From Candidatus Nomurabacteria bacterium (lineage in GTDB: Bacteria; Patescibacteriota; Minisyncoccia; Phycocordibacterales; UBA9973), in NCBI GenBank assembly GCA_028286485.1, contig JAQBRM010000007.1, positions 1 through 49,600 of the forward strand: a stretch of DNA of 49,600 nucleotides, read 5' to 3'. Below, piece after piece: positions 4,231 through 40,603 of this stretch (positions are counted from its first letter, which is position 1; each line of letters begins with the position of its first letter). The notes beneath the pieces are model-generated. The model ran no database searches, was not told where the DNA came from, and saw only the letters and a program-made list of their open reading frames with translations. Both the position numbers and the translations under genes were made by a program.

Positions 4231-4752
4231 CTATGCCTTAGCCTGTGCTTTAATTTGAGTGATAGCGTCATTGAAGCCGCGGCCGGTCAAAGAAGATCCG
4301 GAAACCTTATCAAGCTTCAATATACTGATATCTTTTCCTACCACATACGGTGTATAAGCGCCGGCAAAGATTTGTTGGTAGTGCGCAGAAGTACCATCGT
4401 TTGCCCCTTCTTTGAGAGAGACCGCGGTAATTTTATCGGCTTTCAGTGTGACGGTAACACCCAACTGATCCAATCCCCCTGGCGACATGTATGAACCGGT
4501 AGCGGTATACGTGCCATCCTTATAGGCACTTGCCGCTACAGGAGTAGTCGAAGGATTTCCCACCGGAGTAGTAGTCGGTGTCGTGGTTTGCGGAACAGCT
4601 GTCACTGGCGCCGTTGAGGTGGATGAATCTGTAGAGGTTGAAGCGGAATGTTGTGTTGCATACGTGATACCTATTAATGCGAGCAGTCCGACAATGGCGA
4701 CGCCGATGCCGAGATTTTTATTCGACTTCTTTTGTGTTTCTTGTGGTTCCAT
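4231..4752 (-). CDS. Membrane-anchored FMN-binding (FMN_bind) domain protein, likely ApbE substrate
   Basis: It has an N-terminal TM segment (LGIGVAIVGLLALIGITYA), an S/T/P-rich linker and a C-terminal domain. The domain carries DKVSGSSLT (encoded at 4285-4311), which resembles the [S/T]GA[S/T] flavinylation motif. Confidence 0.7.
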   Translation of the reverse strand: MEPQETQKKSNKNLGIGVAIVGLLALIGITYATQHSASTSTDSSTSTAPVTAVPQTTTPTTTPVGNPSTTPVAASAYKDGTYTATGSYMSPGGLDQLGVTVTLKADKITAVSLKEGANDGTSAHYQQIFAGAYTPYVVGKDISILKLDKVSGSSLTGRGFNDAITQIKAQAKA

Positions 4753-4777
4753 AGGGCCTAGTATAAATTATTTTTTA

Positions 4778-5155
4778 TTATATTGCTAAAATATCATCAC
4801 CGTACATAAAAATGCAGAACGTGGCAACTGCCAATCCAAAGTCACGCACGCCAATCTCGCCGTATCCTACCGTATACATGATATCGAACAGGTGCAGTGC
4901 CAATAGTAATGCTACCCATCGCACCTGCCAACCGAAGAGCAGTAATGTTCCCAATACTACTTCCACCAGTCCATTGAAGGTGACGAGGGTGGAAGCGCTG
5001 ACATGAGTAAGGGTTACAATTGAGTCCGGTATGTAGGCAATCCATTGCGCGTTATTGATCAGCTGCTGGACGCCGAACCAGAGTATTACCAGCGATAAGC
5101 CATAGCGGAGCACGGCAGGGGCATACAGGCGAAGTTTCATTGCGGCGGTATTCAT
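4778..5155 (-). CDS. DoxX-family small membrane protein
   Basis: 125 aa with about four hydrophobic segments. The LSLVILWFGVQQL and LLLFGW patterns resemble DoxX. Confidence 0.65.
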   Translation of the reverse strand: MNTAAMKLRLYAPAVLRYGLSLVILWFGVQQLINNAQWIAYIPDSIVTLTHVSASTLVTFNGLVEVVLGTLLLFGWQVRWVALLLALHLFDIMYTVGYGEIGVRDFGLAVATFCIFMYGDDILAI

Positions 5156-5205
5156 GATAGCAGTATAAACTTATACGTATAATTTCTCAATTTCTTTCAC
5201 TGCTA

Positions 5206-6696
5206 CTATTCCACGTGCACCGTGATATCAGTGCGCTCATTTTTTAATTTCAATGTCAGTGCAAAGAACGCACCGATCAGCACAACGATGCCGGAAATAA
5301 TGAACACGTAGTTGTAGGCATCAATCTGCGCTTTCAGCTCAATCAGCGAAACATACCGTTGAATATCCAACACGGCATGGCTGTGCAGCACACTCCATTG
5401 ATTGATGAATAAAATATTACTGTTCGTCCTATTGGCCAGAATGGTGCCGAACAAGGCGATACCGAATGCGCCGGCCACGTTGCGCGCCAATGCCAAGATT
5501 GATGATGCGACGCCGATTTCATGCGGATCAACCACCGATGCAATGATATTGGTACGCTGCGCCATGCCGAAACCGAGACCAAAGGCCATGACACATAGTG
5601 GAATGATCAAACCCACTGCCGTAGTCTTGGGATCAAGGTGCGCGAACATGAACAAGCCAATGGCGGTGACGAGCGTGCTGGCAAAAATCACATAGCGAGA
5701 CTGTACCCTGCCCATCAATGCGCCGCCGACCGGCGCGGCCAGCATCATGGCAGCCGCCATGGGCATGAAAAGATAGCCGGCTTCCGTGGCGCTGTAGCCA
5801 AGGAATGTTTGGGCAAAGACCGGCAAGAGGAATAATCCGCCCATCAATCCCATGAAGACCACGAAGTTATTGAACAATGTGTTGACGAAGGCGGGGATTT
5901 TGAAGAAGCGCAAATCCACAATCGGCTCAGGAACATTTTTCTCAATGCGAATAAATACTGCGAGAAATATCACTATCAATGAATAGCAGAGGATGCTCAG
6001 ACCGGAAAGCCAACCCCATGTCGCGCCTTGGTCGAGCACTAACACCAATGATGACAGCATGCCACCCAAGGTGATAGCACCCCACCAGTCAAAGAAAACT
6101 GACTTCACTTCGGAGCGGGACTCATTGATGAATCTCATGGCCATGAGCAACCCCAGAATACCGACCGGTAAATTTATTAGAAAAACCGATCGCCAACCGA
6201 AGTTATCGATCAATGGGCCGCCCAGTAACGGTCCGAAGACACTGGCCGCCGCAAATGAACTGGACCAGATGCCCAAGGCTTGCGCGCGTTCTTTTTGTTC
6301 CTTGAATGTCACCGCCAAGATGGCCATAGCGGTCGGATAATCGGCTGATCCGGCAATGGCTTGAATGACTCGGAAGACGATCAATGAGGACAGGTTCCAC
6401 GCCAAACCGGCCAAGACCGAGCCGAGGATGAAAATAGTGAAGCCCAGAATATACACTTTCTTTCGTCCGATGGTATCGCCGAGCTTGCCCCAAATAGGCA
6501 CAAAGATGGCATTGGCCAGAATATACGCCGTGGCAATCCAGCCGGCCGCACTGACCGTAATGTGAAAGTCACTGATGATATTGGGCAGTGCCAAGTTGAC
6601 GATTGTTTGATCGAGACGGCCCAAGAAGGTACCGATAATCACCGTCAATAAAATCCACCAGCGCAGACTGCTTTTCTTTTCGACCGCTTTGTCCAT
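5206..6696 (-). CDS. MFS transporter, DHA2 (EmrB/QacA-like) drug:H+ antiporter
   Basis: 496 aa with about 14 TM segments. It shows MFS motif A-like GKLGDTIGRKKV and DHA2-like LDQTIVNLALP. It starts 1 nt after the upstream adaptor gene. Confidence 0.9.
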   Translation of the reverse strand: MDKAVEKKSSLRWWILLTVIIGTFLGRLDQTIVNLALPNIISDFHITVSAAGWIATAYILANAIFVPIWGKLGDTIGRKKVYILGFTIFILGSVLAGLAWNLSSLIVFRVIQAIAGSADYPTAMAILAVTFKEQKERAQALGIWSSSFAAASVFGPLLGGPLIDNFGWRSVFLINLPVGILGLLMAMRFINESRSEVKSVFFDWWGAITLGGMLSSLVLVLDQGATWGWLSGLSILCYSLIVIFLAVFIRIEKNVPEPIVDLRFFKIPAFVNTLFNNFVVFMGLMGGLFLLPVFAQTFLGYSATEAGYLFMPMAAAMMLAAPVGGALMGRVQSRYVIFASTLVTAIGLFMFAHLDPKTTAVGLIIPLCVMAFGLGFGMAQRTNIIASVVDPHEIGVASSILALARNVAGAFGIALFGTILANRTNSNILFINQWSVLHSHAVLDIQRYVSLIELKAQIDAYNYVFIISGIVVLIGAFFALTLKLKNERTDITVHVE

Positions 6697-21561: not shown

Positions 21562-22353
21562 TTATTTCGAAATGTACTGCTGTAGGATCTCATCACAAGA
21601 AATTGCTTGTTGGGAGCCGGTAAAAGACTCGGCCACCGAAGGTTGAGCGGGAAAAAGCTCCCATGGCAGGACGCGACAGGCGAGAAAGGAGTGGCTGGCA
21701 GTAATAGCCCCCACAATACGAACAGCATTTCCTACCTGTAATAATACAGGGTCTGGAGCAGAGGAGAGCTTACTGATGTCCACAGTCCATACAAATCCAT
21801 TAAAAGCCCTTATTGTTAGCGTGGTGGGGCTTGTAGCGCTGACAACACCGGAAATACGGCCTTCCGTGGGGCTATTCCAGACGTATTCTTGTTGATTTTG
21901 AGTTGGGTGACGATAGTACGTTTCCACCCCATCATTCAGCGAATTGGCGGTCATGGCATAGAACAACATACCGATGATAATACTGCTCGCCACACTGATT
22001 AGCAGCAACTGTAGGGCCGTATGGCGATACCCCGTATTGGTTTTGCGCAGTAATGCGATAGTGATCAATGAGAAGAGTGCGAATGAAATAATCCATAATA
22101 ACGGGATAATAGCGATAAATACCAGCGGACCCCTATATTGGACATACTCTCTATTTTCCCAATGGGCATGCAAAATGCCGTACAATCCTCCAGCTATGGT
22201 ATAGGCTCCCAAGAGTGTGGTGATTACACCGGGAATCCACATCAATGTATTTCGCACCCTGAAATACCATTTCGGTCGCGGGGTGACTTTTTGCTGATCG
22301 ATAGCGGCAATGATTTTTTCGGTTGTATTAGATGTTGGTTCCATAGTCGGCAA
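21562..22353 (-). CDS. Polytopic membrane protein, putative anti-sigma factor
   Basis: 263 aa with several TM segments and a C-terminal soluble domain. It overlaps the 3' end of the ECF sigma gene by 26 nt. The function is inferred from position only. Confidence 0.45.
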   Translation of the reverse strand: MPTMEPTSNTTEKIIAAIDQQKVTPRPKWYFRVRNTLMWIPGVITTLLGAYTIAGGLYGILHAHWENREYVQYRGPLVFIAIIPLLWIISFALFSLITIALLRKTNTGYRHTALQLLLISVASSIIIGMLFYAMTANSLNDGVETYYRHPTQNQQEYVWNSPTEGRISGVVSATSPTTLTIRAFNGFVWTVDISKLSSAPDPVLLQVGNAVRIVGAITASHSFLACRVLPWELFPAQPSVAESFTGSQQAISCDEILQQYISK

Positions 22354-22906
22354 TCTTTTTTTGTAATTGTTTCTTGGCTCTATTGATACGCACCGCCACG
22401 GTACCGGCGGGGATTTTTAAAATATCAGCGATCTCTTCATATGATTTCTCCTCAAAAAAACGCAGGAGCAGGATTTCTTTGTATTTTTCATCAAGACCAT
22501 TGAGTGTGTTGATAATGTACTTTTTTTGTTCTTCATTACTGAAACGGGTGGTGAGGTCATCGTCGGACATGAGCTTGGTGACAATATCTTGGGCATCGTC
22601 ATCGAGCGACAGCGTGGCCCGCCGCTTCTCACGACGATACCAATCAATCATTTCGTTATGGGCGATGCGATAGATCCAAGAGGAAAATAATAGCGTCGTA
22701 TCATAGTCATTGAGGTTGCGATAGACCTTTATAAAAATATTTTGCAGCAAGTCCTCGATATCATCACTGGTGGCCAAGCTGCGCCGCCGGATGTATCGAG
22801 TCAATTTTGGCACGTATCGATCAACCAGCAATGCGAAATACTCAGAATCTTTCTTGCATTCAATGACAATCGCTTCATCGGAAAGCTGACCGGTATCTTG
22901 GAGCAT
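22328..22906 (-). CDS. ECF-type sigma-70 family RNA polymerase sigma factor
   Basis: 192 aa with region 2 (DIEDLLQNIFIKVYRNLNDYD...WIYRIAHNEMIDWYRR). Region 4 has an HTH (SYEEIADILKIPAGTVAVRINRAKKQL). Confidence 0.85.
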   Translation of the reverse strand: MLQDTGQLSDEAIVIECKKDSEYFALLVDRYVPKLTRYIRRRSLATSDDIEDLLQNIFIKVYRNLNDYDTTLLFSSWIYRIAHNEMIDWYRREKRRATLSLDDDAQDIVTKLMSDDDLTTRFSNEEQKKYIINTLNGLDEKYKEILLLRFFEEKSYEEIADILKIPAGTVAVRINRAKKQLQKKIADYGTNI

Positions 22907-22930
22907 TTTTATAGTATACGACAGAAATCG

Positions 22931-23536
22931 CTATTTACTTTCATGTGAATTGTCGTGCGTTTTCACATAGTTATCATAGGCGGTTTGATAATGCATGACA
23001 GTCTCGTCTTTTGGAAAATAATGCGATGTTGTTTTGCTCCCCGGAATGTTTTCCGGATCTGATAAAACATCCAATACATGCCCATCTGCCAGCGTAGCCT
23101 TTCCTTCCGCTACACGCTGAATAAGCCATTCCCTATAATTTTTAAAATAAACTTGAATATTTCTGACATCATCAAGTTCCAAGGCAGTGTTTGGGTTTTC
23201 GTCAATAAATTGCTGAAGCATTTCCTGCGCCTTATTCCCTCTGTCTAATTCCTCACTGCCTCTTAACTTTTTTGCTTCAAGCCAATCCAAGTAGTGGTCC
23301 CACGCATGTTTCTTTTCAATTCTTATTTCTATATTGTTTTCCTTATGATGTACCGTTTCTGTTTTATCTCCCGGTTTATCCGGTGTTTCAGTATGATGCT
23401 CGGTGGCCAGTGCTCCTGTTGAAGCGGCCGCCAGCCCTACCGCCATAGCCGCTTTTCTCATCCAACTTGGTGTTTCAATGCTTGATGTCTCTTTTTCCTC
23501 GTTATTTTGCGGTATTGGTGGGTTTTCCATGCTCAT
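22931..23536 (-). CDS. Hypothetical membrane-anchored/secreted protein (201 aa), His-rich N-proximal segment
   Basis: Intact ORF with a hydrophobic segment (AAMAVGLAAASTGALA). It is divergent from the response regulator gene. I recognise no family. Confidence 0.5.
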   Translation of the reverse strand: MSMENPPIPQNNEEKETSSIETPSWMRKAAMAVGLAAASTGALATEHHTETPDKPGDKTETVHHKENNIEIRIEKKHAWDHYLDWLEAKKLRGSEELDRGNKAQEMLQQFIDENPNTALELDDVRNIQVYFKNYREWLIQRVAEGKATLADGHVLDVLSDPENIPGSKTTSHYFPKDETVMHYQTAYDNYVKTHDNSHESK

Positions 23537-23646
23537 ATACCCCAGTATATACCACTTCTCAAGAAATTCTAAAGCATTTCAGGGGGTCTTCCCCACTTTC
23601 AGCTCGTTTTTTAAAAATCCTTATCTTATAATGAATATATAACCAT

Positions 23647-24321
23647 ATGCGTATTTTATTGATTGAAGATGACACTGAGACTCAGGAATTCTTACTGAGA
23701 CGATTGGAAGAGAAAGGGTTTGCTGTTGATATTGCCAAGACCGGCAACCGGGGCATATTTCTTGCCAAAACAAATGAGTATGATGTCATTCTTTTGGACT
23801 ATGGGTTGCCGGAAAAGAACGGCTTCATGGTCTGTGAGGAAATACGGAGCAGTGGCAAGCATACCCCCATTATCATGATATCGGTCAGTGATGCCGTGGA
23901 TTACAAAATCAAAGGCCTGACTGCCGGCGCCGATGACTATGTGGCCAAGCCGTTTTACTTTGAGGAATTATTCGCGCGCATCCAAGCCATGCTGCGTCGA
24001 CCGGCTGTCCTGGAAAGCAGCTTTTACAGCATCGATGATTTGAAGGTGGACATCGATCGCCAAACGGTCATGCGAGCCAATGCGCCTATTTATCTGACAC
24101 GCAAAGAGTTCTCATTGTTGGAATATTTATTGAAACATACCGGCACGGTGGTAACACGCGGCGAACTCATGGAGCATATTTGGGATATGACACTCGACCC
24201 CTTTTCCAATACCATTGAAACCCATGTGCTTAATCTTCGTCGCAAGATCGAGCAACCGTCAAAAATCAAACTAATTCATAGCATCCCGGGTCGCGGTTAC
24301 AAAATCGATCTTATACGATAA
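23647..24321 (+). CDS. OmpR/PhoB-family response regulator
   Basis: 224 aa. The receiver domain includes ILLIEDD and DVILLDYGLP, and a winged-helix output domain follows (LTRKEFSLLEYLLKH...IHSIPGRGYKI). Confidence 0.95.
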   Translation: MRILLIEDDTETQEFLLRRLEEKGFAVDIAKTGNRGIFLAKTNEYDVILLDYGLPEKNGFMVCEEIRSSGKHTPIIMISVSDAVDYKIKGLTAGADDYVAKPFYFEELFARIQAMLRRPAVLESSFYSIDDLKVDIDRQTVMRANAPIYLTRKEFSLLEYLLKHTGTVVTRGELMEHIWDMTLDPFSNTIETHVLNLRRKIEQPSKIKLIHSIPGRGYKIDLIR

Positions 24322-24375
24322 TTTAGAAAAACTTCGGCTAAATTTTATCACTGATTTTCTATACTACAGGGGCTA

Positions 24376-24404
24376 TTGGTCGAATAGCACATACTAGCTA
24401 TAAT
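24376..24404 (+). promoter_or_regulatory. Promoter-like element inside the RR-HK gap
   Basis: TTGGTC (24376-24381) is followed by 17 nt and TATAAT (24399-24404), which ends 17 nt upstream of the mini-ORF ATG. The spacer overlaps the hairpin GCTATT-GGTCG-AATAGC. Confidence 0.3.
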
Positions 24405-24421
24405 TACTCCATTATTCCCCT

Positions 24422-24535
24422 ATGAATAAATTAGTAGAAACCATGCTTGCCACCCCCTCCGCCCGCAATGCCGAAACCCTGAAAACGGTAGCCCTGTCCC
24501 AGAGCACGTTCACCCCTTGGGAAGGTACCGAATAA
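24422..24535 (+). CDS. Hypothetical 37-aa ORF with one C-proximal Trp (candidate signalling-peptide precursor)
   Basis: My own translation is MNKLVETMLATPSARNAETLKTVALSQSTFTPWEGTE. It occupies the otherwise unexplained 234-nt gap between the RR stop and the HK ATG. I saw no SD sequence and have no homology evidence. Confidence 0.3.
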   Translation: MNKLVETMLATPSARNAETLKTVALSQSTFTPWEGTE

Positions 24536-24555
24536 ATCCCATACGGACCCATACA

Positions 24556-26049
24556 ATGAATACTCGTCATCGATTAAGCCATTCCTTCCTTTCTTTCAAG
24601 GCTTTATTCGACCGCGGTATTCATTTTATGTATAGGCGGTGCATCGCTCCGCGCTCCGACACGGAAGATGAGAAACGCCATGAATTCATCCTCAACACCA
24701 TTTTGTGCGGCATTATCCCACTGCTCATTATTCTGGATACTTTTATTGCCCATGCGGCTCTGGAGCAACGCAATGCATATCAAGGAGTGCCGTTTCCCAT
24801 CTTTAGTTTTATTGTCATTCTGTTTGTCTATCTCCTTATTCTGTCTCGCAATACCTACCATAGGCTGGCCAGCTTTATCCTGATCGGCTTGTATTTCATC
24901 AGTACGACGTATGGCGCGATTCATTGGGGTATTGAATTACCGCTCGTGGCTATCAGCTATGTCGTCATTATCGTGATTTCCAGTATTTTAATTTCCACGC
25001 GGTTTGGCTTCTTTGTCACCTCTACGATTACCCTTACGATCATTGCCATCTGTGAACTGCAACTGCATCAGATAGTACATCCATCGCTGCAATGGAAATA
25101 TGCGTCCATAAGCATTCATGACCCTATTCAGCTCTCGGTGATATTTTTCCTCATCACCATTATCTCTTGGCTGTCCAATAGGGAAATGGAACGGTCATTG
25201 ATCCGAGCACGGGCATCCGAACACTTGCTGGTGGAAGAAAGAAATCTCTTGGAGATAAAAGTCGAGGAACGCACCAAGGAATTGAAGGAGGTGCAGCATG
25301 ATAAAGTGGCACAACTCTATCGCGTGGCGGAATTTGGCCGCATCTCAGCCGGCGTATTCCATGATTTGATGAACTCTCTGCAAGTAGTGGTATCAAATAT
25401 CAGCCAAGTGGAGGCGGGACCCGAACATCTGCCGGAAGTAAGGTTGCAGCTGGCCAAGACCGTGGCGGCCAGCAAGCGCATGGGCCGCTACATTGATACC
25501 GTGCGCAAACAAATCAGAAATGATGATACTCTTGCCGCAGAATTCTCAGTGGAAAAAGAAATTACCGACGCGATGGATATGTTGCAATTTCACGCTCGTA
25601 AGGCAAACGTGTCACTGCATTTCATCAAGAAACATTCCCTGATCTTGCATGGCAATCCCTTGAAATTTTACCAAGCCATTCTTAACCTGTTAGCCAATGC
25701 CATTGATGCCTGCGATGACAATGATAAACAGGGACAGATAGACATTATCCTCCAGTCTCACATACAAAATACCCATGCTGTTGTTATCATTCGGGATAAC
25801 GGGTGCGGCATACCCGTTGATGTCCTAGACCATATCTTTGATCAATTTTTCACCACCAAGGGCGCTCATAAAGGCATCGGCTTAGGCCTGTCCCAAACCA
25901 AGGAAATTATCGAGAAGGAATTCAAGGGAACCATTACGGTGACCAGCGAAGAATATCGCGGCACGACATTTACCATTACCCTGCCCATCATTCATGACAC
26001 CATTCAATTATCAGCCGGCGCTGCAATACCTGCTCTCACAACAACATGA
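24556..26049 (+). CDS. Sensor histidine kinase with about six N-terminal TM helices and no large extracytoplasmic domain
   Basis: The H-box is ISAGVFHDLMNSL, the N-box LLANAIDA, G1 DNGCGI and G2 GIGLGL. I chose the ATG at 24556. The track TTG at 24517 would overlap the mini-ORF. Confidence 0.9.
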   Translation: MNTRHRLSHSFLSFKALFDRGIHFMYRRCIAPRSDTEDEKRHEFILNTILCGIIPLLIILDTFIAHAALEQRNAYQGVPFPIFSFIVILFVYLLILSRNTYHRLASFILIGLYFISTTYGAIHWGIELPLVAISYVVIIVISSILISTRFGFFVTSTITLTIIAICELQLHQIVHPSLQWKYASISIHDPIQLSVIFFLITIISWLSNREMERSLIRARASEHLLVEERNLLEIKVEERTKELKEVQHDKVAQLYRVAEFGRISAGVFHDLMNSLQVVVSNISQVEAGPEHLPEVRLQLAKTVAASKRMGRYIDTVRKQIRNDDTLAAEFSVEKEITDAMDMLQFHARKANVSLHFIKKHSLILHGNPLKFYQAILNLLANAIDACDDNDKQGQIDIILQSHIQNTHAVVIIRDNGCGIPVDVLDHIFDQFFTTKGAHKGIGLGLSQTKEIIEKEFKGTITVTSEEYRGTTFTITLPIIHDTIQLSAGAAIPALTTT

Positions 26050-27868
26050 GGACGGCTCTTTTGATACTACCTTTTATACGGGACTCATCGTCAATGCATT
26101 AGAACAATTTGACGATACTATCAGTCTTCTTATCAAAAAACGCGCCGTACGGTTTTTACTGCAAGAAAAAAGCAGGCAGTGGTCGTTTAATTACGATCGT
26201 CGAGATGCCGTGGACAACCGATATCCTGATGATTTGGATGATACGTTCGTGGCACTGAAAGCCATTAGCATATGCCGGCCTGCCATGCTGACAGGCGAAA
26301 CATGGCAAGCTATCACTGCATTGCTTATTGCCAATGAGGAAAAACCGGCCGGTCCATATCAGACATGGATCATGCCATTGGCTGCGCGATCGGTTGAATG
26401 GCAGGACATCGATATTGTCGTTAACAGCAACATTGCCTCTTTTTTATCGCGTTTCAATATCGTCTTGCCGAGCATGCAGGAATATTTTGATGGTTTTATA
26501 GAGGCGGGGAATTTTTCTTCACGCTATTACCACCATGAATGCATCATTGTGTATTTCTTATCAAAAGCCTATCGGGGAACACATGCCGGCTTGTTACGCG
26601 AAACGTTGTTGAAAAAACGCAATGAAAATAATTATTGGGATTCAGCGTTTATTGCCGCTTTGTCTGTCAGTGCCTTGTTGGCATTAGGACAGGCGTCTGC
26701 CAGCCTTACTCCTGCTATTCAATACATTATGGATGGTGAGAAAGACGGACAGTGGACAGCTGAATCTTTTTTTATTGAATCGAAAAGTAATTCCGGGGTA
26801 ACCTATAGCGTTTCAGCTGCTCATACTACCGCCTGTTGTATCGAGGCATTACGCGCATATGAAGCCGCTGTTCGTCTTTCTACCACTGCTTCTATTTCCA
26901 ATGGTAATGACACTGAAGAAACACTTTTTATTGAAAAAGTCATTAGCAGCTGCAAGGAAATATTCTGTAACAGTGGTTCATTACTAACACAGCACATTCA
27001 TGGGGCACTTGATGTACTGATGAAGAAAGACCCGCATGCCGAGGTGATATTATTACCGTATCATTTTTCAAAAAACATGATGTGTGGTGGAGCGGTGTCG
27101 ACTGAACAACTGGCCGTAGCGACCACCCTTGGTTGGATTGGGTATACATTCCTTGATAAGACCATGGATGGCGAAGATACTATCGGCCGATTACCGTTGG
27201 CTGCTAAATGTATTCGCGAGTCCTATAATATTTTTCAATTATTCAATAAAGACCATGGTTCTGTTGTCCAAAGAATTCTCGATGGTATAGAAAGTGCCGT
27301 GTTGTCTGAGTATGTGACCTGTATATTACAAAAAGATGGTGATGATTTTCTTATGCCTTTTACCCTGCCTGACTATGGTGACTATCAGTGCTTGGCGGAA
27401 AAATCATTAGGGTTTGCTTTGGCGCCTATTATTCTTTGCCTGCAGGCGCAGGAATATGATCAGGCGGTACTGATGGAAAGGTTTTTCATTCATTATCTCA
27501 TTGCCCGACAGCTGAATGATGATGCACATGACTGGCTGGAGGATTTGGAACATGGTTTCATCAACAGTGTCAGTGTCGATATCATTAAGGACTGGCACAC
27601 ACAATATGTTTCAAGGAAATTAAACATGCGCCATGATAAGAAAATACTGCAAACGATTTTTTGGGAGAAACATATCGATACTGTCAGTACTACTATTGTT
27701 TTTCATTGCCAGAAGGCCAGCGATGTATTGAAAAAAATCACCGTACTGGCCGATAACACATTCTTAGAAAATTTACTCCATCCCTTGCAGCATTCCGCCA
27801 CGGAAGCATTGACGGAGCGGGACAAGGTCAGGCAATTCATATATACTTTGCATACTAACGATGAGTAA
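25994..27868 (+). CDS. Fusion protein: N-terminal terminal-cyclase/prenyltransferase-like alpha/alpha-toroid domain + C-terminal isoprenoid-synthase-like (two Asp-rich motifs) domain
   Basis: 624 aa. QW-like repeats are ALQYLLSQQHEDGSF, AVRFLLQEKSRQWSF and AIQYIMDGEKDGQW. YPDDLDDTF (DLDDT encoded within 26228-26245) resembles the DxDDTA motif of class II cyclases. The C-terminal half has DKTMDGED (27155-27178) and QLNDDAHDWLEDLEHG (motif core 27515-27544), 121 residues apart. Coding status is confident; the functional call is tentative. Confidence 0.6.
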   Translation: MTPFNYQPALQYLLSQQHEDGSFDTTFYTGLIVNALEQFDDTISLLIKKRAVRFLLQEKSRQWSFNYDRRDAVDNRYPDDLDDTFVALKAISICRPAMLTGETWQAITALLIANEEKPAGPYQTWIMPLAARSVEWQDIDIVVNSNIASFLSRFNIVLPSMQEYFDGFIEAGNFSSRYYHHECIIVYFLSKAYRGTHAGLLRETLLKKRNENNYWDSAFIAALSVSALLALGQASASLTPAIQYIMDGEKDGQWTAESFFIESKSNSGVTYSVSAAHTTACCIEALRAYEAAVRLSTTASISNGNDTEETLFIEKVISSCKEIFCNSGSLLTQHIHGALDVLMKKDPHAEVILLPYHFSKNMMCGGAVSTEQLAVATTLGWIGYTFLDKTMDGEDTIGRLPLAAKCIRESYNIFQLFNKDHGSVVQRILDGIESAVLSEYVTCILQKDGDDFLMPFTLPDYGDYQCLAEKSLGFALAPIILCLQAQEYDQAVLMERFFIHYLIARQLNDDAHDWLEDLEHGFINSVSVDIIKDWHTQYVSRKLNMRHDKKILQTIFWEKHIDTVSTTIVFHCQKASDVLKKITVLADNTFLENLLHPLQHSATEALTERDKVRQFIYTLHTNDE

Positions 27869-28730
27869 GATCAGCAGCCTGACCAAAGAAACGTTTTCGC
27901 ACTGGTATGACCATAGCGCCCCTCGTATGGGGGCGGCATTGTCTTTCTATGCCCTCTTTTCCATTGCACCGTTATTCATTTTAGTGATCGGTGTCATTAG
28001 GACGATTTTTGATAGGGCGACCGTGCACATGGCTATTGATCATACCTTGCGCGCTACGGTCGGAAGCAATTTGGCGGCATCGATTCAAGGTCTCATTAAT
28101 GGCGCCTATCATGCCCCGGCCGGCGTAATGACCACCATCATAAGCGGGGTAATTCTGATCGTGGCCGCCATCAGCGTCTTTGCGGAACTGAATACAGACC
28201 TCGATGAGTTGTGGAAATTGCCATCACCTCGGCCCGTAGTCGAAAATACTTCCACCAAACAAGCGATCGTGCATTTTCTCAAAGATCGTTTATTGGCATT
28301 ATTCCTTATTTTACTATTCAGCCTGCTCTCCCTTTTCAGCGTGGCTTTTACGGTATTTATTTCTTTTTTTCACACGGCAACTATCTTGCTTCAAAATACT
28401 TTTTTATTGCAAGGCATTAATATAGCACTCACCCTCATTATCACCACCATTCTTTTCGCGCTGATTTATCGCATCCTGCCAGACACCAAGCTTACTTGGG
28501 GTGACATATTTCGCGGAGCGATCGTCACCTCCCTGCTTTTCTTGTTCGGCAAATACCTGATCGGCTGGTACATTGATGCCTTTGGCGGCACCTCCGCCTT
28601 CGGAACGGCCGGTTCCGTTGTCGGCCTGCTCTTATGGATATACTACTCCGCGCAAGTCTTCTTTATCGGCGCCTCATTTACCTTTGTCTATTCCAAACGA
28701 TACGGATTTCTATCGAGGATGATGAACTAG
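27861..28730 (+). CDS. YihY/BrkB-family polytopic membrane protein
   Basis: 289 aa. The N-terminus (FSHWYDHSAPRMGAALSFYALFSIAPL) and the C-terminal GSVVGLLLWIYYSAQVFFIGA are typical of YihY. It overlaps the upstream gene by 8 nt. Confidence 0.85.
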   Translation: MSKISSLTKETFSHWYDHSAPRMGAALSFYALFSIAPLFILVIGVIRTIFDRATVHMAIDHTLRATVGSNLAASIQGLINGAYHAPAGVMTTIISGVILIVAAISVFAELNTDLDELWKLPSPRPVVENTSTKQAIVHFLKDRLLALFLILLFSLLSLFSVAFTVFISFFHTATILLQNTFLLQGINIALTLIITTILFALIYRILPDTKLTWGDIFRGAIVTSLLFLFGKYLIGWYIDAFGGTSAFGTAGSVVGLLLWIYYSAQVFFIGASFTFVYSKRYGFLSRMMN

Positions 28731-30484
28731 CTGCTTCTTTTGGCATGCATCAATAGATCCACGGCGTGTTCAAATGATCCGGCGGCCGTTAATGAACTTC
28801 CATTGACGAAGAAAATTTCATCGGCATTTTGAATAGTGTTCAAACGGTGTGCAATGATGACTTTAGTGGTGGTGGGAGGAAGCGTTTCAATTACTTTCTC
28901 CAGCAATGCTTCGGTGACCGTATCAATGTTTGCGGTGGCTTCATCCAGAATAATCAAATCAGGTTTGCGTAAAACGGCGCGCATAAAGGCAATGAGTTGG
29001 CGCTGCCCCAGACTGATGCTTTCTCCACTCTGGGTGACCGGTGTAGCCAAGCCGGATTCAAACCGTTGCACTAAATCATACAGGCCGTTTTCATGCAGGG
29101 CTTTTTCCAAGTGCTCGACAGGGGTGCCGTCATAGGCGGTATTGCCATAAAAAATATTTTCTCCCACCGTGCCGCTGAATAGAAACGGTTCCTGTAAAAT
29201 AAATCCGATTTTCTGTACGCGTTCGGCATCGGGTACGGTGCGCATATCTTTTCCTTCCAACCACACGGTGCCATGAGAAGGATCGTACAGACGAGCCATC
29301 AACGAAGCAGTGGTGGTTTTGCCGCCGCCGGTCGGACCGACCAATGCGTATGTTTTGCCTGGCAGTAATGCCACGGTCACATCGTGCAGGACAGTTTTCT
29401 GACTGTCGCTATACATAAACCCCACATCTTGAAATGAAATAGTGGTGGCTAGATCCGCTCTCGCCGGAGCAGCGGCCAGTAAGGGCATATCATTAGGCAT
29501 GGCGACAATGCCGGCAATACGGTCCCAGCTAGCCATAGCGGTTTGAAAAGTGGCCCACAGTGAAGCCATTTGTCGTAACGGGTCATACAAGCGGCTGCAG
29601 TACGTGATATAACTGATCAAAAAACCCAGCGTGAAATTACCAATCAAAATAAGATGTATGCCGTATATCAGTACCAGCAATTGCGCGGCATTGGCGGCAA
29701 ACCCGTATAGTGCCACGAAAATGTTGTTGGCGATGCCGGCCCGCACGGAGGTTAGGAAATTTTTGTGATTGGCGGCATTGAATTTTTCCCGGAAGTAATC
29801 ACGACGGTTGAATGCCACAATGACTTTGAAGTTGCCGAGGCTCTCTTGGATCTCAGCGCTCATACCCCCCACTTCCTGCAAACTTTTTGCATTCTGCGTT
29901 TTAACCCATGAGCCGATCAGTTGTGTCACCACCAACACGACCGCCAATGGGATCAAGGCAATAAGGCCAAGTCGCGGATTGATACTGAGGATAAATATAG
30001 CCGCGCCGATCATGACAAAGATATTGCCGATGAATTGCATCAAGGACTGGGAGAAAAATTGGTTCAAGTTGTCTGTATCGGTGTTGATGCGGGAAATAAG
30101 ATCACCGGCCTTGTTTTGGTTGAAGAAGGCAATAGGCAACTCCTGCAACTTTTCAAATATGGTGTTGCGCAAGGTAAAGAGCAAGCGCTGGCTGACGCCG
30201 CCCATGACTTTGGTTTGAACGTAGCTGGCAATGAACGCACCAATGTAGACCAATAACACCAATCCCGCGTACAAGGGCAAACCGGCATAGTGTTTCGTAA
30301 TAATGTACGTATTGATAGCGCGACCGATCAAGAGCGGGGTCAGCAGGGTCAGTCCGGCATTGGTAATAATGGCGGTAAAAGTAACGGCTAGTTGCACGGT
30401 GTCATTTTTCAGCAACGGCAAAAGCTTGCGCAGTGCCGCGAAGACTGATGATCTTTCTTGATGTGTATTCAATGAATAATTCAT
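28727..30484 (-). CDS. ABC exporter, fused TMD-NBD (half-transporter, partner B)
   Basis: 585 aa with six TM segments followed by an NBD. The NBD has Walker A (GPTGGGKTT), signature (LSLGQRQ) and Walker B (LILDEAT). Confidence 0.9.
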   Translation of the reverse strand: MNYSLNTHQERSSVFAALRKLLPLLKNDTVQLAVTFTAIITNAGLTLLTPLLIGRAINTYIITKHYAGLPLYAGLVLLVYIGAFIASYVQTKVMGGVSQRLLFTLRNTIFEKLQELPIAFFNQNKAGDLISRINTDTDNLNQFFSQSLMQFIGNIFVMIGAAIFILSINPRLGLIALIPLAVVLVVTQLIGSWVKTQNAKSLQEVGGMSAEIQESLGNFKVIVAFNRRDYFREKFNAANHKNFLTSVRAGIANNIFVALYGFAANAAQLLVLIYGIHLILIGNFTLGFLISYITYCSRLYDPLRQMASLWATFQTAMASWDRIAGIVAMPNDMPLLAAAPARADLATTISFQDVGFMYSDSQKTVLHDVTVALLPGKTYALVGPTGGGKTTTASLMARLYDPSHGTVWLEGKDMRTVPDAERVQKIGFILQEPFLFSGTVGENIFYGNTAYDGTPVEHLEKALHENGLYDLVQRFESGLATPVTQSGESISLGQRQLIAFMRAVLRKPDLIILDEATANIDTVTEALLEKVIETLPPTTTKVIIAHRLNTIQNADEIFFVNGSSLTAAGSFEHAVDLLMHAKRSS

Positions 30485-36736: not shown

Positions 36737-38161
36737 TTATTGCTTTGGTTTTTTTAATACGATGTGCAATTCATCAATCTGTTTGTCAGAAATTGTTGAA
36801 GGTGCATTCATCATCGGATCCCTGCCCTCACCGGTTTTTGGAAAAGCCATGACTTCGCGGATATTGGCTTCGTTCAGGAGCAGCATCATGAGACGATCAA
36901 AGCCCCACGCAATACCGCCATGTGGGGGTGTGCCGACTTTAAAGGCTTGCAGCATATGGCCGAAATCTTTTTCAATAGCCTCCGCTTCATGACCGAGCAA
37001 TTCGAAGACTTTTGAAAGTGCTTCAAAAGAATGGTTACGGATGGAACCGCCGCCGATTTCAAAGCCGTTCAGACAAATATCGTACTGGGTGGTCAAAATA
37101 TTACCCACCGCTTCTTTATTCATGAGGTTATCCATATGCTCTTCAATCGGTCGAGAAAATGGGTTATGCGTATAGGTCCATTGTCCTTGGGCGTCAGGGT
37201 TGTCACTCTTGCTGGTTGATTCAAAAAATGGGAAGTCTATCACCCAACAAAATGCCAAGAGATTCGGATCATTTTTATCTTCGCGAATATCGGGACGATC
37301 GTTGCCATATTTTTCCATTGCATCCTTGTATGAAATACGAGGAAATGGGAGTTGTTGAATCTTTTTCTCAGGAAATAACTTAGTCACCATGTTAATAAGG
37401 AGTGCTTCATTTGTCTGCATGACATCTTCACGAGTAACGAAGCTCATTTCCATGTCGAGCTGGGTGAATTCCGGCTGGCGATCCCCTCGCCCGTCTTCAT
37501 CACGCATGCATTTTGCAAATTGAAAATATCGTTCCATGCCCGCAGTCATCAGAAGCTGCTTGTACTGCTGAGGAGATTGCGGCAAGGCATAAAAATTTCC
37601 CGGATAGACACGAGAAGGAACCACATAGTCGCGCGCTCCTTCCGGAGTCGACTTGGTCAGCATCGGTGTTTCCACTTCGATGAATTTCCGCTCATGTAAA
37701 AAATCGCGGATGTATTTCTGTACCTCGTCGCGCTTGCGCATGTTACGTTGCATGCGAACACTGCGGAGATCAAGGTAGCGATGTTTCAAACGCACTTCCT
37801 CGTTCACATCCACCGTATCGATGTTGATTTCAAACGGTAACGGTTCCGCCTTGTTCAAGATAGTCAGGGCGGTAATTTCCAGCTCAATATCTCCGTTCTG
37901 TTTATCAGCTTGCACATTACGTTCCGGACGCTTGTTCACCATACCCTCCACAACTATCACTGATTCCGGGCGGGCATCCTTCACCGCCTCGGCCATTTCA
38001 GCCGCCCGATTGGGCAATACGACTCCTTGGATATAGCCCGTCATATCGCGAAAATCAAAAAAGACCATTTTGCCCTGATCTCGACGTACATCAATCCATC
38101 CTTTCAATAAAACAGTTTCGCCCGCGTGCTGCCCCGTTTCTCCAATATATGTTCGTTCCAT
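36737..38161 (-). CDS. aspS: Aspartate--tRNA ligase, bacterial-type core without the GAD insertion domain
   Basis: 474 aa with class II motifs (FRDEDxRxDRQPEFTQLDMEMSF-like, GGGSIR, GIAWGFDRL). The sequence DRPDIREDKNDPNLLAFCWVIDFPFFE joins directly where bacterial AspRS normally carries the GAD domain. Confidence 0.9.
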   Translation of the reverse strand: MERTYIGETGQHAGETVLLKGWIDVRRDQGKMVFFDFRDMTGYIQGVVLPNRAAEMAEAVKDARPESVIVVEGMVNKRPERNVQADKQNGDIELEITALTILNKAEPLPFEINIDTVDVNEEVRLKHRYLDLRSVRMQRNMRKRDEVQKYIRDFLHERKFIEVETPMLTKSTPEGARDYVVPSRVYPGNFYALPQSPQQYKQLLMTAGMERYFQFAKCMRDEDGRGDRQPEFTQLDMEMSFVTREDVMQTNEALLINMVTKLFPEKKIQQLPFPRISYKDAMEKYGNDRPDIREDKNDPNLLAFCWVIDFPFFESTSKSDNPDAQGQWTYTHNPFSRPIEEHMDNLMNKEAVGNILTTQYDICLNGFEIGGGSIRNHSFEALSKVFELLGHEAEAIEKDFGHMLQAFKVGTPPHGGIAWGFDRLMMLLLNEANIREVMAFPKTGEGRDPMMNAPSTISDKQIDELHIVLKKPKQ

Positions 38162-38201
38162 AATCCCCTTATTCTACCTGAAAAAGGGCGATATTAAAAG
38201 C

Positions 38202-38660
38202 CTAATGCAGGAAATTCAACTTTGGATTTCTGAGATAGTTATTTTCCACTTTTTCCAATCGTGTATCGATGTTTTCCATCCTATATTCCACACGCTCTAG
38301 CCGATTCTCAATTTTATCAAATCGATCATCCATGCTGTCAAAACGCCGACCAACTGCTTCAAATTCTTTAGCAGTAATAATAGCCAGTTCTTCAACCTTT
38401 TCATCTATTTTTTGTAATAAGTTTGTTTCTACAGCTTCTATTTTAGCTAATAATTTTGTTTCAACGCCGTCTATTTTAGCAGTCAGCTCAGTTCTCACAC
38501 TATGAACTTCTGCTCCCAGTCCATCAATTTTAGTTAATAATATTGTTTCAACACCATCTATTTTTTGATCCAACTGTTTGTTTTGCGCTCCAAGCCCAAT
38601 GATCATTTCAGCCAGATCTTCATTCGTGACGTCTTTTTTGGTTGGTTTGGTACTACTCAT
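38202..38660 (-). CDS. Hypothetical coiled-coil protein with 11-residue repeats
   Basis: 152 aa with repeats KIDGVETILLT / KIDGVETKLLA / KIEAVETNLLQ / KIDEKVEELAI. I see no TM segment and recognise no family. Confidence 0.55.
   Translation of the reverse strand: MSSTKPTKKDVTNEDLAEMIIGLGAQNKQLDQKIDGVETILLTKIDGLGAEVHSVRTELTAKIDGVETKLLAKIEAVETNLLQKIDEKVEELAIITAKEFEAVGRRFDSMDDRFDKIENRLERVEYRMENIDTRLEKVENNYLRNPKLNFLH
38391..38564 (-). repeat. Intragenic tandem ~33-nt (11-aa) repeats
   Basis: The DNA repeats GTTTCAAC(G/A)CC(G/A)TCTATTTT-type units. They encode the KIDGVET-x-LL-x units at protein residues 33-90. Confidence 0.6.
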
Positions 38661-38712
38661 GACCAGAGTATAGCATGTGACATATCAAGAAAAACCAAAG
38701 ATTTTCTAAAGA

Positions 38713-38741
38713 TTGACTTTAATTAAAAATCGTTATATAAT
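38713..38741 (+). promoter_or_regulatory. Near-consensus sigma70 promoter for the ABC exporter at 38777
   Basis: TTGACT (38713-38718) is followed by 17 nt and TATAAT (38736-38741). The start codon lies 35 nt downstream. Confidence 0.55.
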
Positions 38742-38776
38742 ATAGAAAATTTCACTCATTCATTAAAAATTTAAGT

Positions 38777-40603
38777 ATGAAAAAAGAACTCACTTCTAGT
38801 ATTTCCCTTCTACGGCGAATAGTTTCATTTGCGAAACCCTTTCGAAAACCTCTTATTACCATCTTTATATGTATTTGCGCTGTAACCATAATTGATGCTG
38901 CAAACAGCTTCTGGTTCAGTCAAATATTTAACTTAGTTCAAAAACACGGTACATCTCCACAACTTCTCCCCAAAGCATTAATGTTTATAGGGATAGCGGT
39001 AGTATTTGCTTTTGTTCGCATAGGGGTGGTAAGCAAGCAAACTAAAACAAAGATCAAACATATTGACCTGTCGGTTATGAATCATCTTAACCACGAGTCA
39101 ATTAAAAAATTCTTTTCGTTTTCAAACGGTCAACACATTAATGAGCATTCCGGGGTAAAACAAAATGTTGTAAACACCGGGACCAACTCCATTAAAAGCC
39201 AAATGGATCTATTATTTTTCAAGTTATTCCCTACTATCACTCAGTTTATAGTAGCGCTTGGAATTTTGCTGTATTGCAGCCTGTGGATCGGGACTATTTT
39301 TATTCTAATCGGAATAGTTTTTTGTTTGATGATGAATCGCATAAACAAAAGACTTGTTCCGGGAGTAAGGAAAATAAGAGATCGCGCTCAATTAAATTCC
39401 CGCCTTATCTCAGAGTTATACCGTTGTGTTACCTCGGTAAAACTTGAAAGTCAGGAAGAGCGATCCCTTGATGAGCTGACAGCGGTACAACAACAGCACC
39501 AGCTAATATCAATGGAAACATGGCTTCCTGCTTTGAAATCACTTACCAAGGTACGTTCCGTGGTGGTGGTGATACGATTTGCGGCCTTGTTTTTGGTTGT
39601 GTATCTTGTTTTTCAAAAACAATTCAGCATGGGGGCAATGTTTCTAGTGTTTACTTATTCAAATACATTTCTCAGTAATTTATGGGATTTCATGGATATG
39701 CATAAGCAGTTCCTGATCGATCGCATTAATATTGAAAGGTATTTTGAACTACTCGAGGTAGAGCCTGACATTGTCATTGTTGAAAACCCTATTAAACTGA
39801 AAAGATTGTACGGGAAGATTGAATTCAAAAATGTTTCTTTCTATTACCCACAACGAGTTAAGTCCTATGAAAATGTAGAGTACTTGCAGGAAGATGAGTT
39901 GCAAAATGATGCCATATTAAAATCGGTTTCATTTGTAATCAATGCCGGCGAAAAGGTTGGTATTGTAGGAGAATCGGGATCAGGTAAATCAACATTGGTA
40001 AATCTGATCAGGCGGTCGTTTGACGCCCAAGAAGGTCAAATTTTAATCGATGGCCACGATCTTCGCTTGCTTGATTTAGGGTTATTCTTAGAACATGTAG
40101 GCAATGTCGAGCAAGAGGTGGTTATTTTCGATCGTTCCATCAGGGATAATATTACGTTCGGGTTAAACAGCCGAACAAAAGCAATCACTCAGGAAAAATT
40201 AGAAAAAATCACTGAAATTGCCCGCGTGAATGCTTTCTTCCCTCGCCTTGAACATGGCTTTGATACCATGGTGGGAGAAAAGGGATTTAAACTATCCGGC
40301 GGTGAACGTCAGCGTGTTGGGATTGCGCGAGCTCTCGCAAAGGATCCCAGCCTCATTATTTTTGATGAGGCAACTTCTTCACTTGATGCAGTGAGCGAAC
40401 GTCTCGTTCAGGAAGCAATTGATGAAGCCTGTAAAGGTAAGACAGCGATTGTTATTGCCCATCGCCTTTCTACGGTAAAAAATTGTGACCGTATTCTGGT
40501 TTTCCGTTATGGTGTCCTTCTAGCCCAAGGAACACACGACGAACTGTTAACCGACTGCGAGTATTATGCTGAGCTGGTTCAGCATCAAATGATAACCGCT
40601 TGA
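38777..40603 (+). CDS. ABC exporter, fused TMD-NBD (paralogue 1)
   Basis: 608 aa with Walker A (GESGSGKST), signature (LSGGERQR) and Walker B (IIFDEAT). It shares the GQHINEHSGVKQ motif and an acidic NBD insert with the 41670-43469 protein. Confidence 0.9.
   Translation: MKKELTSSISLLRRIVSFAKPFRKPLITIFICICAVTIIDAANSFWFSQIFNLVQKHGTSPQLLPKALMFIGIAVVFAFVRIGVVSKQTKTKIKHIDLSVMNHLNHESIKKFFSFSNGQHINEHSGVKQNVVNTGTNSIKSQMDLLFFKLFPTITQFIVALGILLYCSLWIGTIFILIGIVFCLMMNRINKRLVPGVRKIRDRAQLNSRLISELYRCVTSVKLESQEERSLDELTAVQQQHQLISMETWLPALKSLTKVRSVVVVIRFAALFLVVYLVFQKQFSMGAMFLVFTYSNTFLSNLWDFMDMHKQFLIDRINIERYFELLEVEPDIVIVENPIKLKRLYGKIEFKNVSFYYPQRVKSYENVEYLQEDELQNDAILKSVSFVINAGEKVGIVGESGSGKSTLVNLIRRSFDAQEGQILIDGHDLRLLDLGLFLEHVGNVEQEVVIFDRSIRDNITFGLNSRTKAITQEKLEKITEIARVNAFFPRLEHGFDTMVGEKGFKLSGGERQRVGIARALAKDPSLIIFDEATSSLDAVSERLVQEAIDEACKGKTAIVIAHRLSTVKNCDRILVFRYGVLLAQGTHDELLTDCEYYAELVQHQMITA

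Follow-up and report, generated by a model that had tools for sequence, protein, structure and literature searches.

In the ComQXPA system of Bacillus (ComQ, ComX, ComP, ComA), four adjacent genes on one strand supply a modifying enzyme of trans-isoprenyl-diphosphate-synthase (trans-IPPS) fold, a short precursor with a C-proximal tryptophan, a polytopic histidine kinase and a response regulator, and we describe here a locus with comparable genes for a regulator, a peptide, a kinase and an enzyme in a 49,600-nucleotide (nt) stretch of contig JAQBRM010000007.1 of Candidatus Nomurabacteria (GenBank assembly GCA_028286485.1), the whole of which we call the window. The tryptophan is likewise placed near the C-terminus in ComX, StheX and PalX (PMC10853753; bioRxiv 10.64898/2026.08.29.745113), the ComQ-type and Ord1 tryptophan prenyltransferases share the trans-polyprenyl-synthase fold (PMC13290415; bioRxiv 10.64898/2026.08.29.745113), and tryptophan is the acceptor in all characterised IPPS-fold peptide prenyltransferases (PMC13290415). 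PalP-PalX-PalQ of Paenibacillus alvei forms a cassette of kinase, precursor and prenyltransferase in which the precursor tryptophan is C-terminal (PMC10853753), while StheQ/StheX of Sphaerobacter, described in a preprint, extends ComQ-like systems to the Chloroflexi, with the tryptophan second from the C-terminus (bioRxiv 10.64898/2026.08.29.745113). Two fused prenyltransferase-cyclase maturases, ChrPC and NctPC, attach a C10-C20 prenyl group to a peptide tryptophan and then cyclise it (PMC13290415, summarising Hubrich et al. 2024, Chem 10:3224), the transferase domain of ChrPC being trans-isoprenyl-diphosphate-synthase-like (PMC13290415).

The locus in the window resembles ComQXPA in having four neighbouring genes on one strand with matching roles, including a short precursor with a C-proximal tryptophan, a modifying enzyme of trans-IPPS fold and a polytopic histidine kinase, but it differs in gene order (regulator, peptide, kinase, enzyme), in its OmpR-type regulator where ComA is of NarL/LuxR type, in an additional predicted class II terpene cyclase domain on an enzyme that has no detectable sequence similarity to ComQ or polyprenyl synthases, and in its hosts, which are mostly Patescibacteria. 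With PalPXQ and StheQ/StheX it shares an isoprenoid-synthase-fold candidate tryptophan prenyltransferase encoded beside its precursor, with the tryptophan at or near the C-terminus, and with PalPXQ also the adjacent histidine kinase; unlike here, PalQ and StheQ lack a cyclase domain and occur in other phyla, PalX is a long precursor of NHLP type, and the described Pal cluster has no regulator. Compared by description, ChrPC and NctPC are similar in joining a tryptophan prenyltransferase and a single-domain class II-type cyclase in one polypeptide with a precursor nearby, whereas the review that covers them mentions no strict linkage to a two-component system (PMC13290415). The domain order appears reversed here, with the cyclase first, as judged from the name 'PC' only. 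The precursors also differ, those here having 32-40 residues and those of ChrPC and NctPC reportedly being of proteusin, Nif11 or lasso type; the abstract of the 2024 work by Hubrich and colleagues is likewise said to make no mention of a strict two-component linkage.

From these genes and their conservation, we infer a ComQXPA-like signalling module that handles a ribosomally synthesised and post-translationally modified peptide (RiPP), in which the enzyme would terpenylate the peptide and the adjacent kinase would sense the product, a reading to which we give a probability of roughly 0.55. An earlier, sequence-only reading of the same locus had proposed a prenylated-peptide cassette of this kind, and we find it partly supported: its core was right, its inclusion of a YihY gene and its promoter were wrong, and its novelty has been overtaken by recent literature. 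None of the outcomes that it had listed as counting against it came up. The statement that no such cassette had been described outside Firmicutes-type ComQXPA is out of date given StheQ/StheX, kinase-linked PalPXQ, NctPC and ChrPC, and the logic of the enzyme and the linkage to a kinase, taken singly, both have precedents. In the literature that we searched, we found no description of the combination of regulator, peptide, kinase and cyclase/transferase, nor of any such system in bacteria of the Candidate Phyla Radiation (CPR), and no report of a pheromone with a cyclised terpene moiety; a dedicated survey of quorum sensing in CPR bacteria never mentions ComX or prenylation.

Conservation of the peptide, kinase and enzyme genes

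Upon taking a census of the neighbours in 83 related loci, we found only four genes to be conserved: those for the regulator, the peptide, the kinase and the enzyme. In 78 of the 83, the gene immediately upstream of the enzyme is a kinase homologue, a regulator homologue is present in 68 (on the same strand and upstream in 63), and the kinase is in turn immediately preceded by a peptide homologue in 72 of the 72 loci that were usable, i.e., that had enough DNA upstream of the kinase, with two further sites besides. Co-occurrence of enzyme homologues with a regulator/kinase pair and a short tryptophan-containing open reading frame (ORF), which had been suggested as a check, thus extends to more than 70 loci, and the four ComQXPA roles that had been assigned to the locus now map onto a co-conserved module. 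Essentially all related loci whose flanking DNA suffices repeat the order peptide, kinase, enzyme, and the arrangement is far from chance. In the window's ORF list, the five ORFs described earlier as packed on one strand all lie on the plus strand with the overlaps reported for them: the 624-residue enzyme ORF (25994-27868) overlaps the 3' end of the kinase gene by 56 nt, and the YihY/BrkB gene downstream overlaps the enzyme gene by 8 nt. Across four loci (the window and three relatives with gene calls), the overlap between kinase and enzyme genes measures 17-56 nt, which argues for co-transcription of the two-component system and the enzyme.

The peptide gene is the mini-ORF of 37 codons that the sequence-only reading had singled out for its ending ...STFTPWEGTE, and its single tryptophan, five residues from the end, is Trp33 (TGG at 24518). 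BLAST recovered it in only about 20 loci, and extraction of the ORFs that precede the kinase in every locus fetched, together with a hidden Markov model (HMM), was needed for the rest; five of the 72 genes start with GTG or TTG and at first looked like absences. Searched against 28,841 six-frame segments from about 1 Mb, the peptide HMM recovered the 72 sites and two same-position sites at E<=8.5e-6, the next best match having E=0.48. The window contains the peptide only once, and the gene calls of three relatives contain small ORFs between regulator and kinase. Peptide lengths range over 32-40 residues, with a conserved N-terminal half (consensus ...KKILTDKxARN...) and a variable stretch before the tryptophan. 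By alignment column, the tryptophan is found in 72 of 72 peptides, Leu9 and Arg15 each in 71 and the proline before the tryptophan in 60, and the C-proximal tryptophan is the only absolutely invariant residue other than the initial methionine.

Codon usage in this gene points to selection on the protein. Leu9 is encoded by all six leucine codons, Arg15 by all six arginine codons and the proline by all four of its codons, while entropy by codon position follows the order 3>1>2; this diversity of synonymous codons, together with the entropy order, indicates that selection acts on the protein and that the gene is translated. Ratios of nonsynonymous to synonymous substitution (dN/dS) were informative only for the two closest pairs (0.11 and 0.28), nearly all others being saturated because the genomes are species representatives, and we replaced them by the codon diversity at invariant residues and the codon-position entropy. 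On these codon-level signs, the mini-ORF is a real, translated gene, which answers the earlier concern that it might be neither conserved nor translated. The divergence of the peptide correlates with that of the enzyme (rho 0.48) and of the kinase membrane domain (0.36) more than with that of the catalytic core of the kinase (0.20) or of the regulator (0.19), a pattern that is no more than suggestive.

The two-component proteins fit their proposed parts. The regulator's assignment to the OmpR type is borne out by its Response_reg and Trans_reg_C domains, its best NCBIfam matches being CopR/CusR-like, and the sensor part of the kinase, described earlier as six transmembrane helices with minimal loops, indeed shows six hydrophobic segments with short loops over residues 49-205, followed by a coiled coil, a DHp domain with its H-box at H269 and HATPase_c. 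The most likely start of the kinase is ATG 24556, not the listed TTG 24517, judging from this ATG and its context, which are kept in nine close relatives; with that start, the peptide ORF and the kinase gene are 20 nt apart and do not overlap.

Upstream of the peptide gene, the TTGGTC-17-TATAAT element noted earlier exists in the sequence (24376-24381 and 24399-24404), but its role as a promoter is doubtful: TTGGTC falls within the loop of a conserved hairpin, TATAAT is not conserved in relatives, and a promoter scan missed the pair. What is kept, in nine close loci and with compensatory changes in the stem, is a TATACT box followed by this hairpin. In 23 of 71 loci, a scan by pattern plus pairing located such a hairpin, its loop being (G)GTCGA, at 16-44 nt before the start of the peptide gene, a 35-fold enrichment over the rest of the loci (locus-wide control); the scan served in place of a covariance model, as the stems fell out of register in MAFFT alignments, the loop lengths being variable. 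The stems differ completely between clades yet always pair, the loop is fixed, and TATACT precedes the hairpin in the close clade. The whole looks like a 5'-untranslated-region RNA element, accessory to the module and limited to certain clades. In the close clade, a candidate OmpR-type direct repeat (TTTATCA twice) lies upstream of TATACT; across clades, only TTTATC is enriched (23 occurrences versus 5 expected).

The two domains of the enzyme

The enzyme of the window, searched alone, gave no Pfam or NCBIfam match, and no Pfam model covers its family. Its two-domain architecture is constant in 31 full-length homologues, with all 150 best family members being full length, and an AlphaFold model of the full-length protein, built on the family alignment, reached a predicted local distance difference test score (pLDDT) of 91.4. 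The N-terminal domain was modelled as a single alpha/alpha barrel whose top Foldseek matches (9m7d, 9mhs, 7xr7 and 1sqc; E=5e-7) rank the class II cyclase domains of drimenol and drimenyl-diphosphate synthases ahead of squalene-hopene cyclase. The family profile matched the cyclase domain of Aquimarina drimenol synthase with E=1.9e-15, and Pfam SQHop_cyclase_C matched 13 of 32 family members. A YPDDLDDT motif lies at 26222-26245, in which P78, D80, L81, D82, D83 and T84 are invariant (32 sequences), and the invariant PDDLDDT aligns with PDDLD(333)TT of the Aquimarina enzyme such that D82 of the window falls opposite D333, which is the mutated position in the D333N crystal structures. The general acid of class II cyclases is the central Asp of DxDD. 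Given this role and the aligned motif, D82 is the putative general acid, and the domain looks, from alignment and model, like a catalytically competent class II terpene cyclase. The sequence-only reading had noted an extra terminal-cyclase-like domain; a cyclase domain is present, and it can be assigned more precisely to the class II terpene cyclases, its DDLDDT being intact. The presence of an intact class II cyclase leads to the prediction that the product would be a cyclised terpenoid on the tryptophan, like that of ChrPC, and not a plain prenyl group. Among characterised proteins, the drimenol synthase AsDMS (9m7d, 9mhs) and the drimenyl-diphosphate synthase SsDMS (7xr7) are homologous to this domain and line up with it in the DDLD(D/T)T acid motif, and MstE is a more distant match (E ~1) than drimenol synthase (E=2e-15); AsDMS, however, has a HAD phosphatase as its fusion partner and takes free farnesyl diphosphate as its substrate, whereas the partner here is a prenyltransferase-fold domain and the substrate would be a peptide-bound chain.

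For the C-terminal half, two Asp-rich motifs about 120 residues apart had been reported, and we located them as D388xxxD392 and D509DxxD513, at a spacing of 121 residues, within GWIGYTxxDxxxDxE (27131-27175), which resembles the first Asp-rich motif (FARM) of prenyl synthases, and RQLNDDAHDWxxDLxxG (27506-27556), which resembles the second (SARM). A glycine, a tryptophan and D388, D392, Q506, D509, D510, H512, D513 and W514 are invariant (alignment A3). The first motif is YxxxDxxxDxE (DxxxD) where the canonical FARM would be DDxx(xx)D, while the SARM-like QLNDDAHD is present. Modelled alone, the domain reached a pLDDT of 93 and a predicted template-modelling score (pTM) of 0.90, and its 50 best fold matches in the PDB (50 of 50) were trans-polyprenyl-diphosphate synthases or prenyltransferases of the same fold, with the tryptophan farnesyltransferase Ord1 among them at a template-modelling score of about 0.6. 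Foldseek hence assigns a trans-isoprenyl-diphosphate-synthase fold to a domain for which the lack of any isoprenoid-synthase fold would have spoken against the proposal. The domain falls outside the ComQ/polyprenyl synthetase sequence family (PF00348/IPR033965), its likeness lying at the level of the fold, with one faint polyprenyl_synt (PF00348) match among 32 relatives (E=0.017); going by the modelled fold, it belongs, as a highly diverged member, to the same superfamily as ComQ.

Several other identities for this domain were considered and set aside. No class I cyclase is among the 50 best fold matches, on which ground we rejected a class I terpene cyclase or synthase; a faint Terpene_syn_C_2 match occurs in only one of 32 family members. 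A chain-elongating trans-isoprenyl diphosphate synthase was rejected as both the canonical FARM and a PF00348 match are missing, and matches to LegK7 and CksHs were short chance matches. The Gln three residues before DDxxD, tried as a signature of tryptophan prenyltransferases, was rejected as diagnostic, its FQxxDDxxD context being non-specific.

In 14 loci, the enzyme is accompanied by a separate polyprenyl diphosphate synthase of canonical type, with DDIID and DDYAD motifs and a Pfam match of 5e-38: downstream in L003 (8908-9927), L017, L019, L022, L036, L042 and L069, between regulator and peptide in L013, L014, L043 and L071, and on the opposite strand in L040, L056 and L081. This neighbour ties the enzyme to the use of prenyl diphosphates, and argues that the C-terminal domain is a transferase consuming them rather than itself a chain-elongating synthase. 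Near the enzyme in three loci (e.g., L081, 10167-10730) lies a NUDIX protein that we read, from its WTNSCCGH motif, as isopentenyl-diphosphate-isomerase-like.

Proposed mechanism and rival explanations

According to the mechanism that we propose, the 37-residue peptide would be a precursor, with its conserved N-terminal half as the recognition or leader part and its invariant C-proximal tryptophan (PW) as the site of modification. The C-terminal domain of the cytoplasmic enzyme would transfer a prenyl group (C10-C20) from a prenyl diphosphate onto the tryptophan indole, and the N-terminal domain would protonate the terminal double bond via its DDLDDT acid (D82) and cyclise the attached chain into a polycyclic terpenoid. 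The resulting terpenoid-lipopeptide, possibly trimmed by proteolysis, may partition into or across the membrane, where the six-helix membrane-embedded domain of the adjacent kinase would sense it and the kinase would phosphorylate the OmpR-type regulator. We consider it rather probable that the peptide is the enzyme's substrate, as far as the chemistry goes. We infer the order of prenylation and cyclisation as well as the biological role, be it self- or partner-signalling. A farther-reaching version, which we put forward only tentatively, is that the module constitutes a phylum-spanning autoinducer system of the Patescibacteria, its signal being a ribosomal peptide that bears a polycyclic terpenoid on its tryptophan and that, once released or displayed in the membrane, would be detected by a kinase dedicated to intramembrane sensing.

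Several observations weigh against terpenylation followed by sensing. Phmmer and profile searches of the PDB, Pfam and NCBIfam gave no sequence-level match of the C-terminal domain to ComQ, Ord1 or IPPS, nor to any other PDB chain, chain-elongating synthases match its fold as well as Ord1 does, and FQxxDDxxD is a context typical of ordinary trans-IPPS enzymes, too. No protease or exporter is conserved in the 83-locus census, and one locus, L040, has the enzyme without a two-component system. Furthermore, a quarter to a third of the peptides resemble a Sec signal peptide followed only by PW and a few residues. Such peptides show a basic N-region, an uncharged hydrophobic stretch of at least 11 residues, small residues and then PW plus 0-6 residues, and their loci include L013, L014, L022, L024, L028, L031, L034, L044, L054, L059, L062 and L065; the peptides of the window's own clade are hydrophilic and not Sec-like.

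In favour of the idea that the enzyme makes a free terpenoid, the nearest characterised homologue of the N-terminal domain makes a free sesquiterpenoid, many chain-elongating synthases are among the best fold matches of the C-terminal domain, and one locus combines the enzyme with a polyprenyl synthase but has neither peptide nor two-component system. Here, the C-terminal domain would elongate or handle a prenyl diphosphate, the N-terminal domain would cyclise it to a product of drimane or labdane type for the kinase to sense, and the peptide would be an unmodified partner, e.g., a small protein that modulates the kinase. We judge this unlikely, however, as the C-terminal domain has neither a canonical DDxx(xx)D FARM nor a Pfam polyprenyl_synt signal, a separate canonical synthase is at hand in 14 loci, and the sole invariant residue beyond methionine in the co-conserved peptide is precisely the C-proximal tryptophan, the acceptor of every characterised IPPS-fold peptide prenyltransferase (PMC13290415). 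Alternatively, the enzyme may well terpenylate the peptide and yet yield a bioactive lipopeptide (antimicrobial, host-directed or membrane-anchoring), with the two-component system regulating production or immunity in response to another cue. ABC exporter pairs occur nearby in 17 loci, and the host-attached life of CPR bacteria would make a host-directed lipopeptide plausible. The cyclised-prenyl RiPPs reported in 2024 by Hubrich and colleagues are, moreover, said to be natural products with modest anti-cyanobacterial activity and not pheromones. Set against this, conservation of the kinase is about as strict as that of the peptide and the enzyme, and its gene lies between theirs, with overlaps, its loop-poor membrane-embedded sensor suits lipidic ligands, the census revealed neither a conserved immunity gene nor a conserved exporter, and ComQXPA and PalPXQ show the same kinase linkage, all of which makes a purely bioactive product distinctly unlikely in our view.

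A very improbable explanation, finally, is that the mini-ORF acts in cis as a leader or arrest peptide, tryptophan-dependent in the manner of TnaC, that controls the kinase-enzyme operon and is neither modified nor released. Its position immediately upstream of the kinase gene, the conserved 5' hairpin in a third of the loci and a conserved Pro-Trp near the stop codon, which recalls the arrest peptides TnaC and SecM, would all fit such a role, but the spacing does not: the tryptophan is followed by 1-6 residues, peptide by peptide (n=72), and the distance from peptide stop to kinase start ranges from -97 to +106 nt across loci, which leaves no fixed geometry for arrest or coupling. Moreover, conservation at the protein level spans all of the N-terminal half even at phylum-level divergence, and a cis-acting leader would leave the strict linkage to a prenyltransferase-cyclase without a reason. 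Modification of the peptide and sensing of the product by the kinase therefore remains the reading that we prefer.

Neighbourhood, distribution and meaning

The features of the locus are collected in Table 1.

Table 1. Positions in the window of the genes, domains and leader element discussed in the text.
Feature	Coordinates	Strand	Description and evidence
OmpR-family response regulator	23647..24321	+	receiver + winged-helix; Pfam Response_reg 4e-26, Trans_reg_C 3e-23
Candidate leader element: TATACT box 24360-24365, then hairpin ~24371-24392 (GCTAT-TGGTCGA-ATAGC)	24360..24392	+	upstream of peptide gene
Precursor-like peptide gene, 37 aa, MNKLVETMLATPSARNAETLKTVALSQSTFTPWEGTE	24422..24535	+	homologue in all usable related loci; peptide HMM
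Sensor histidine kinase	24556..26049	+	Pfam HATPase_c 8e-26, faint 6TM_PilS; hydropathy, H-box
Enzyme N-terminal domain, ~residues 1-290, predicted class II terpene cyclase	25994..26863	+	profile + Foldseek
Enzyme C-terminal domain, ~residues 325-624, predicted trans-isoprenyl-diphosphate-synthase fold	26966..27868	+	structure model + fold matches
YihY/BrkB polytopic membrane protein	27861..28730	+	Pfam Virul_fac_BrkB 1e-43

The YihY protein, which had been counted as a member of the cassette, is encoded downstream in only 10 of the 83 loci, all of the nearest Nomurabacteria-like clade, and is thus an accessory neighbour and not part of the conserved module. Between enzyme and YihY, a 67-residue ORF without Pfam match lies in L001 (8923-9126) and L002 (9225-9428), with no counterpart in the window. 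ABC exporter pairs, found nearby in 17 loci, were considered as module members and rejected: the census speaks against them, and they are convergent and sit with a MurG/FtsW cluster. In L040 (1-4500), the enzyme is a 705-residue ORF with DDLDAT in place of DDLDDT and a convergent polyprenyl synthase, a RadC-like gene replaces kinase, regulator and peptide upstream, and a reverse-transcriptase-like ORF lies nearby (4617-5651).

The window as a whole presents an ordinary chromosomal context of housekeeping genes, with no tRNA genes in it and no Rfam matches within 23300-29000. Divergently upstream of the regulator, on the minus strand (21562-23536), lie genes for a 201-residue protein without Pfam match, a sigma factor of extracytoplasmic-function type (Sigma70_r2/r4_2) and an overlapping 263-residue membrane protein, possibly an anti-sigma factor. 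The sigma factor is present again in L001, but L002 has MarR and efflux genes in its place, and it is therefore not part of the module. Farther away, G+C content falls to 0.365-0.376 at 38000-40000, versus about 0.45-0.50 elsewhere, with a strong negative GC skew at 38-39 kb, around genes for a coiled-coil protein and an ABC transporter (38777-40603).

The enzyme family comprises 1,529 clusters (50% identity) at E<=1e-30 and 308 loci among species-representative genomes. About three quarters of 80 loci listed carry Patescibacteria/CPR labels. Fourteen loci from third-party metagenome-assembled genomes are labelled 'uncultured Gammaproteobacteria' (L020, L029, L041-L043, L050, L052, L061, L064, L067, L069, L070, L078 and L080), and L019, L039 and L083 bear the labels Methylomirabilota, Vitreimonas or Sulfotelmatobacter. 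Unless these contigs belong to CPR bacteria and were given the wrong label or bin, the module is present beyond the Patescibacteria as well. The L003 contig bears PAS-GGDEF-EAL genes, which are uncommon in CPR bacteria.

Genomes of CPR bacteria measure about 1 Mb and encode few regulatory systems, and we know of almost no experimentally understood cell-cell communication among them. Going by sequence comparison and structure models, our analysis defines a large uncharacterised enzyme family together with a candidate peptide-signalling circuit in these bacteria. If our reading is true, signalling by tryptophan-prenylated peptides, as with ComX, would extend far beyond Firmicutes and Chloroflexi, and a large family of compact cyclase-prenyltransferase maturases, acting on a 37-residue substrate, would be added to the two characterised examples; such maturases would be attractive for biocatalytic lipidation of peptides. 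The module would also be a candidate for a dedicated peptide-pheromone circuit of CPR bacteria and, through three small genes amenable to expression in E. coli, would offer a testable handle on how uncultivated episymbionts sense their neighbours or hosts. Under the more tentative autoinducer proposal, divergence of the variable segment before PW could define pherotypes, and these ultra-small episymbionts would possess a private chemical language for the density of their kin or for contact with their host.

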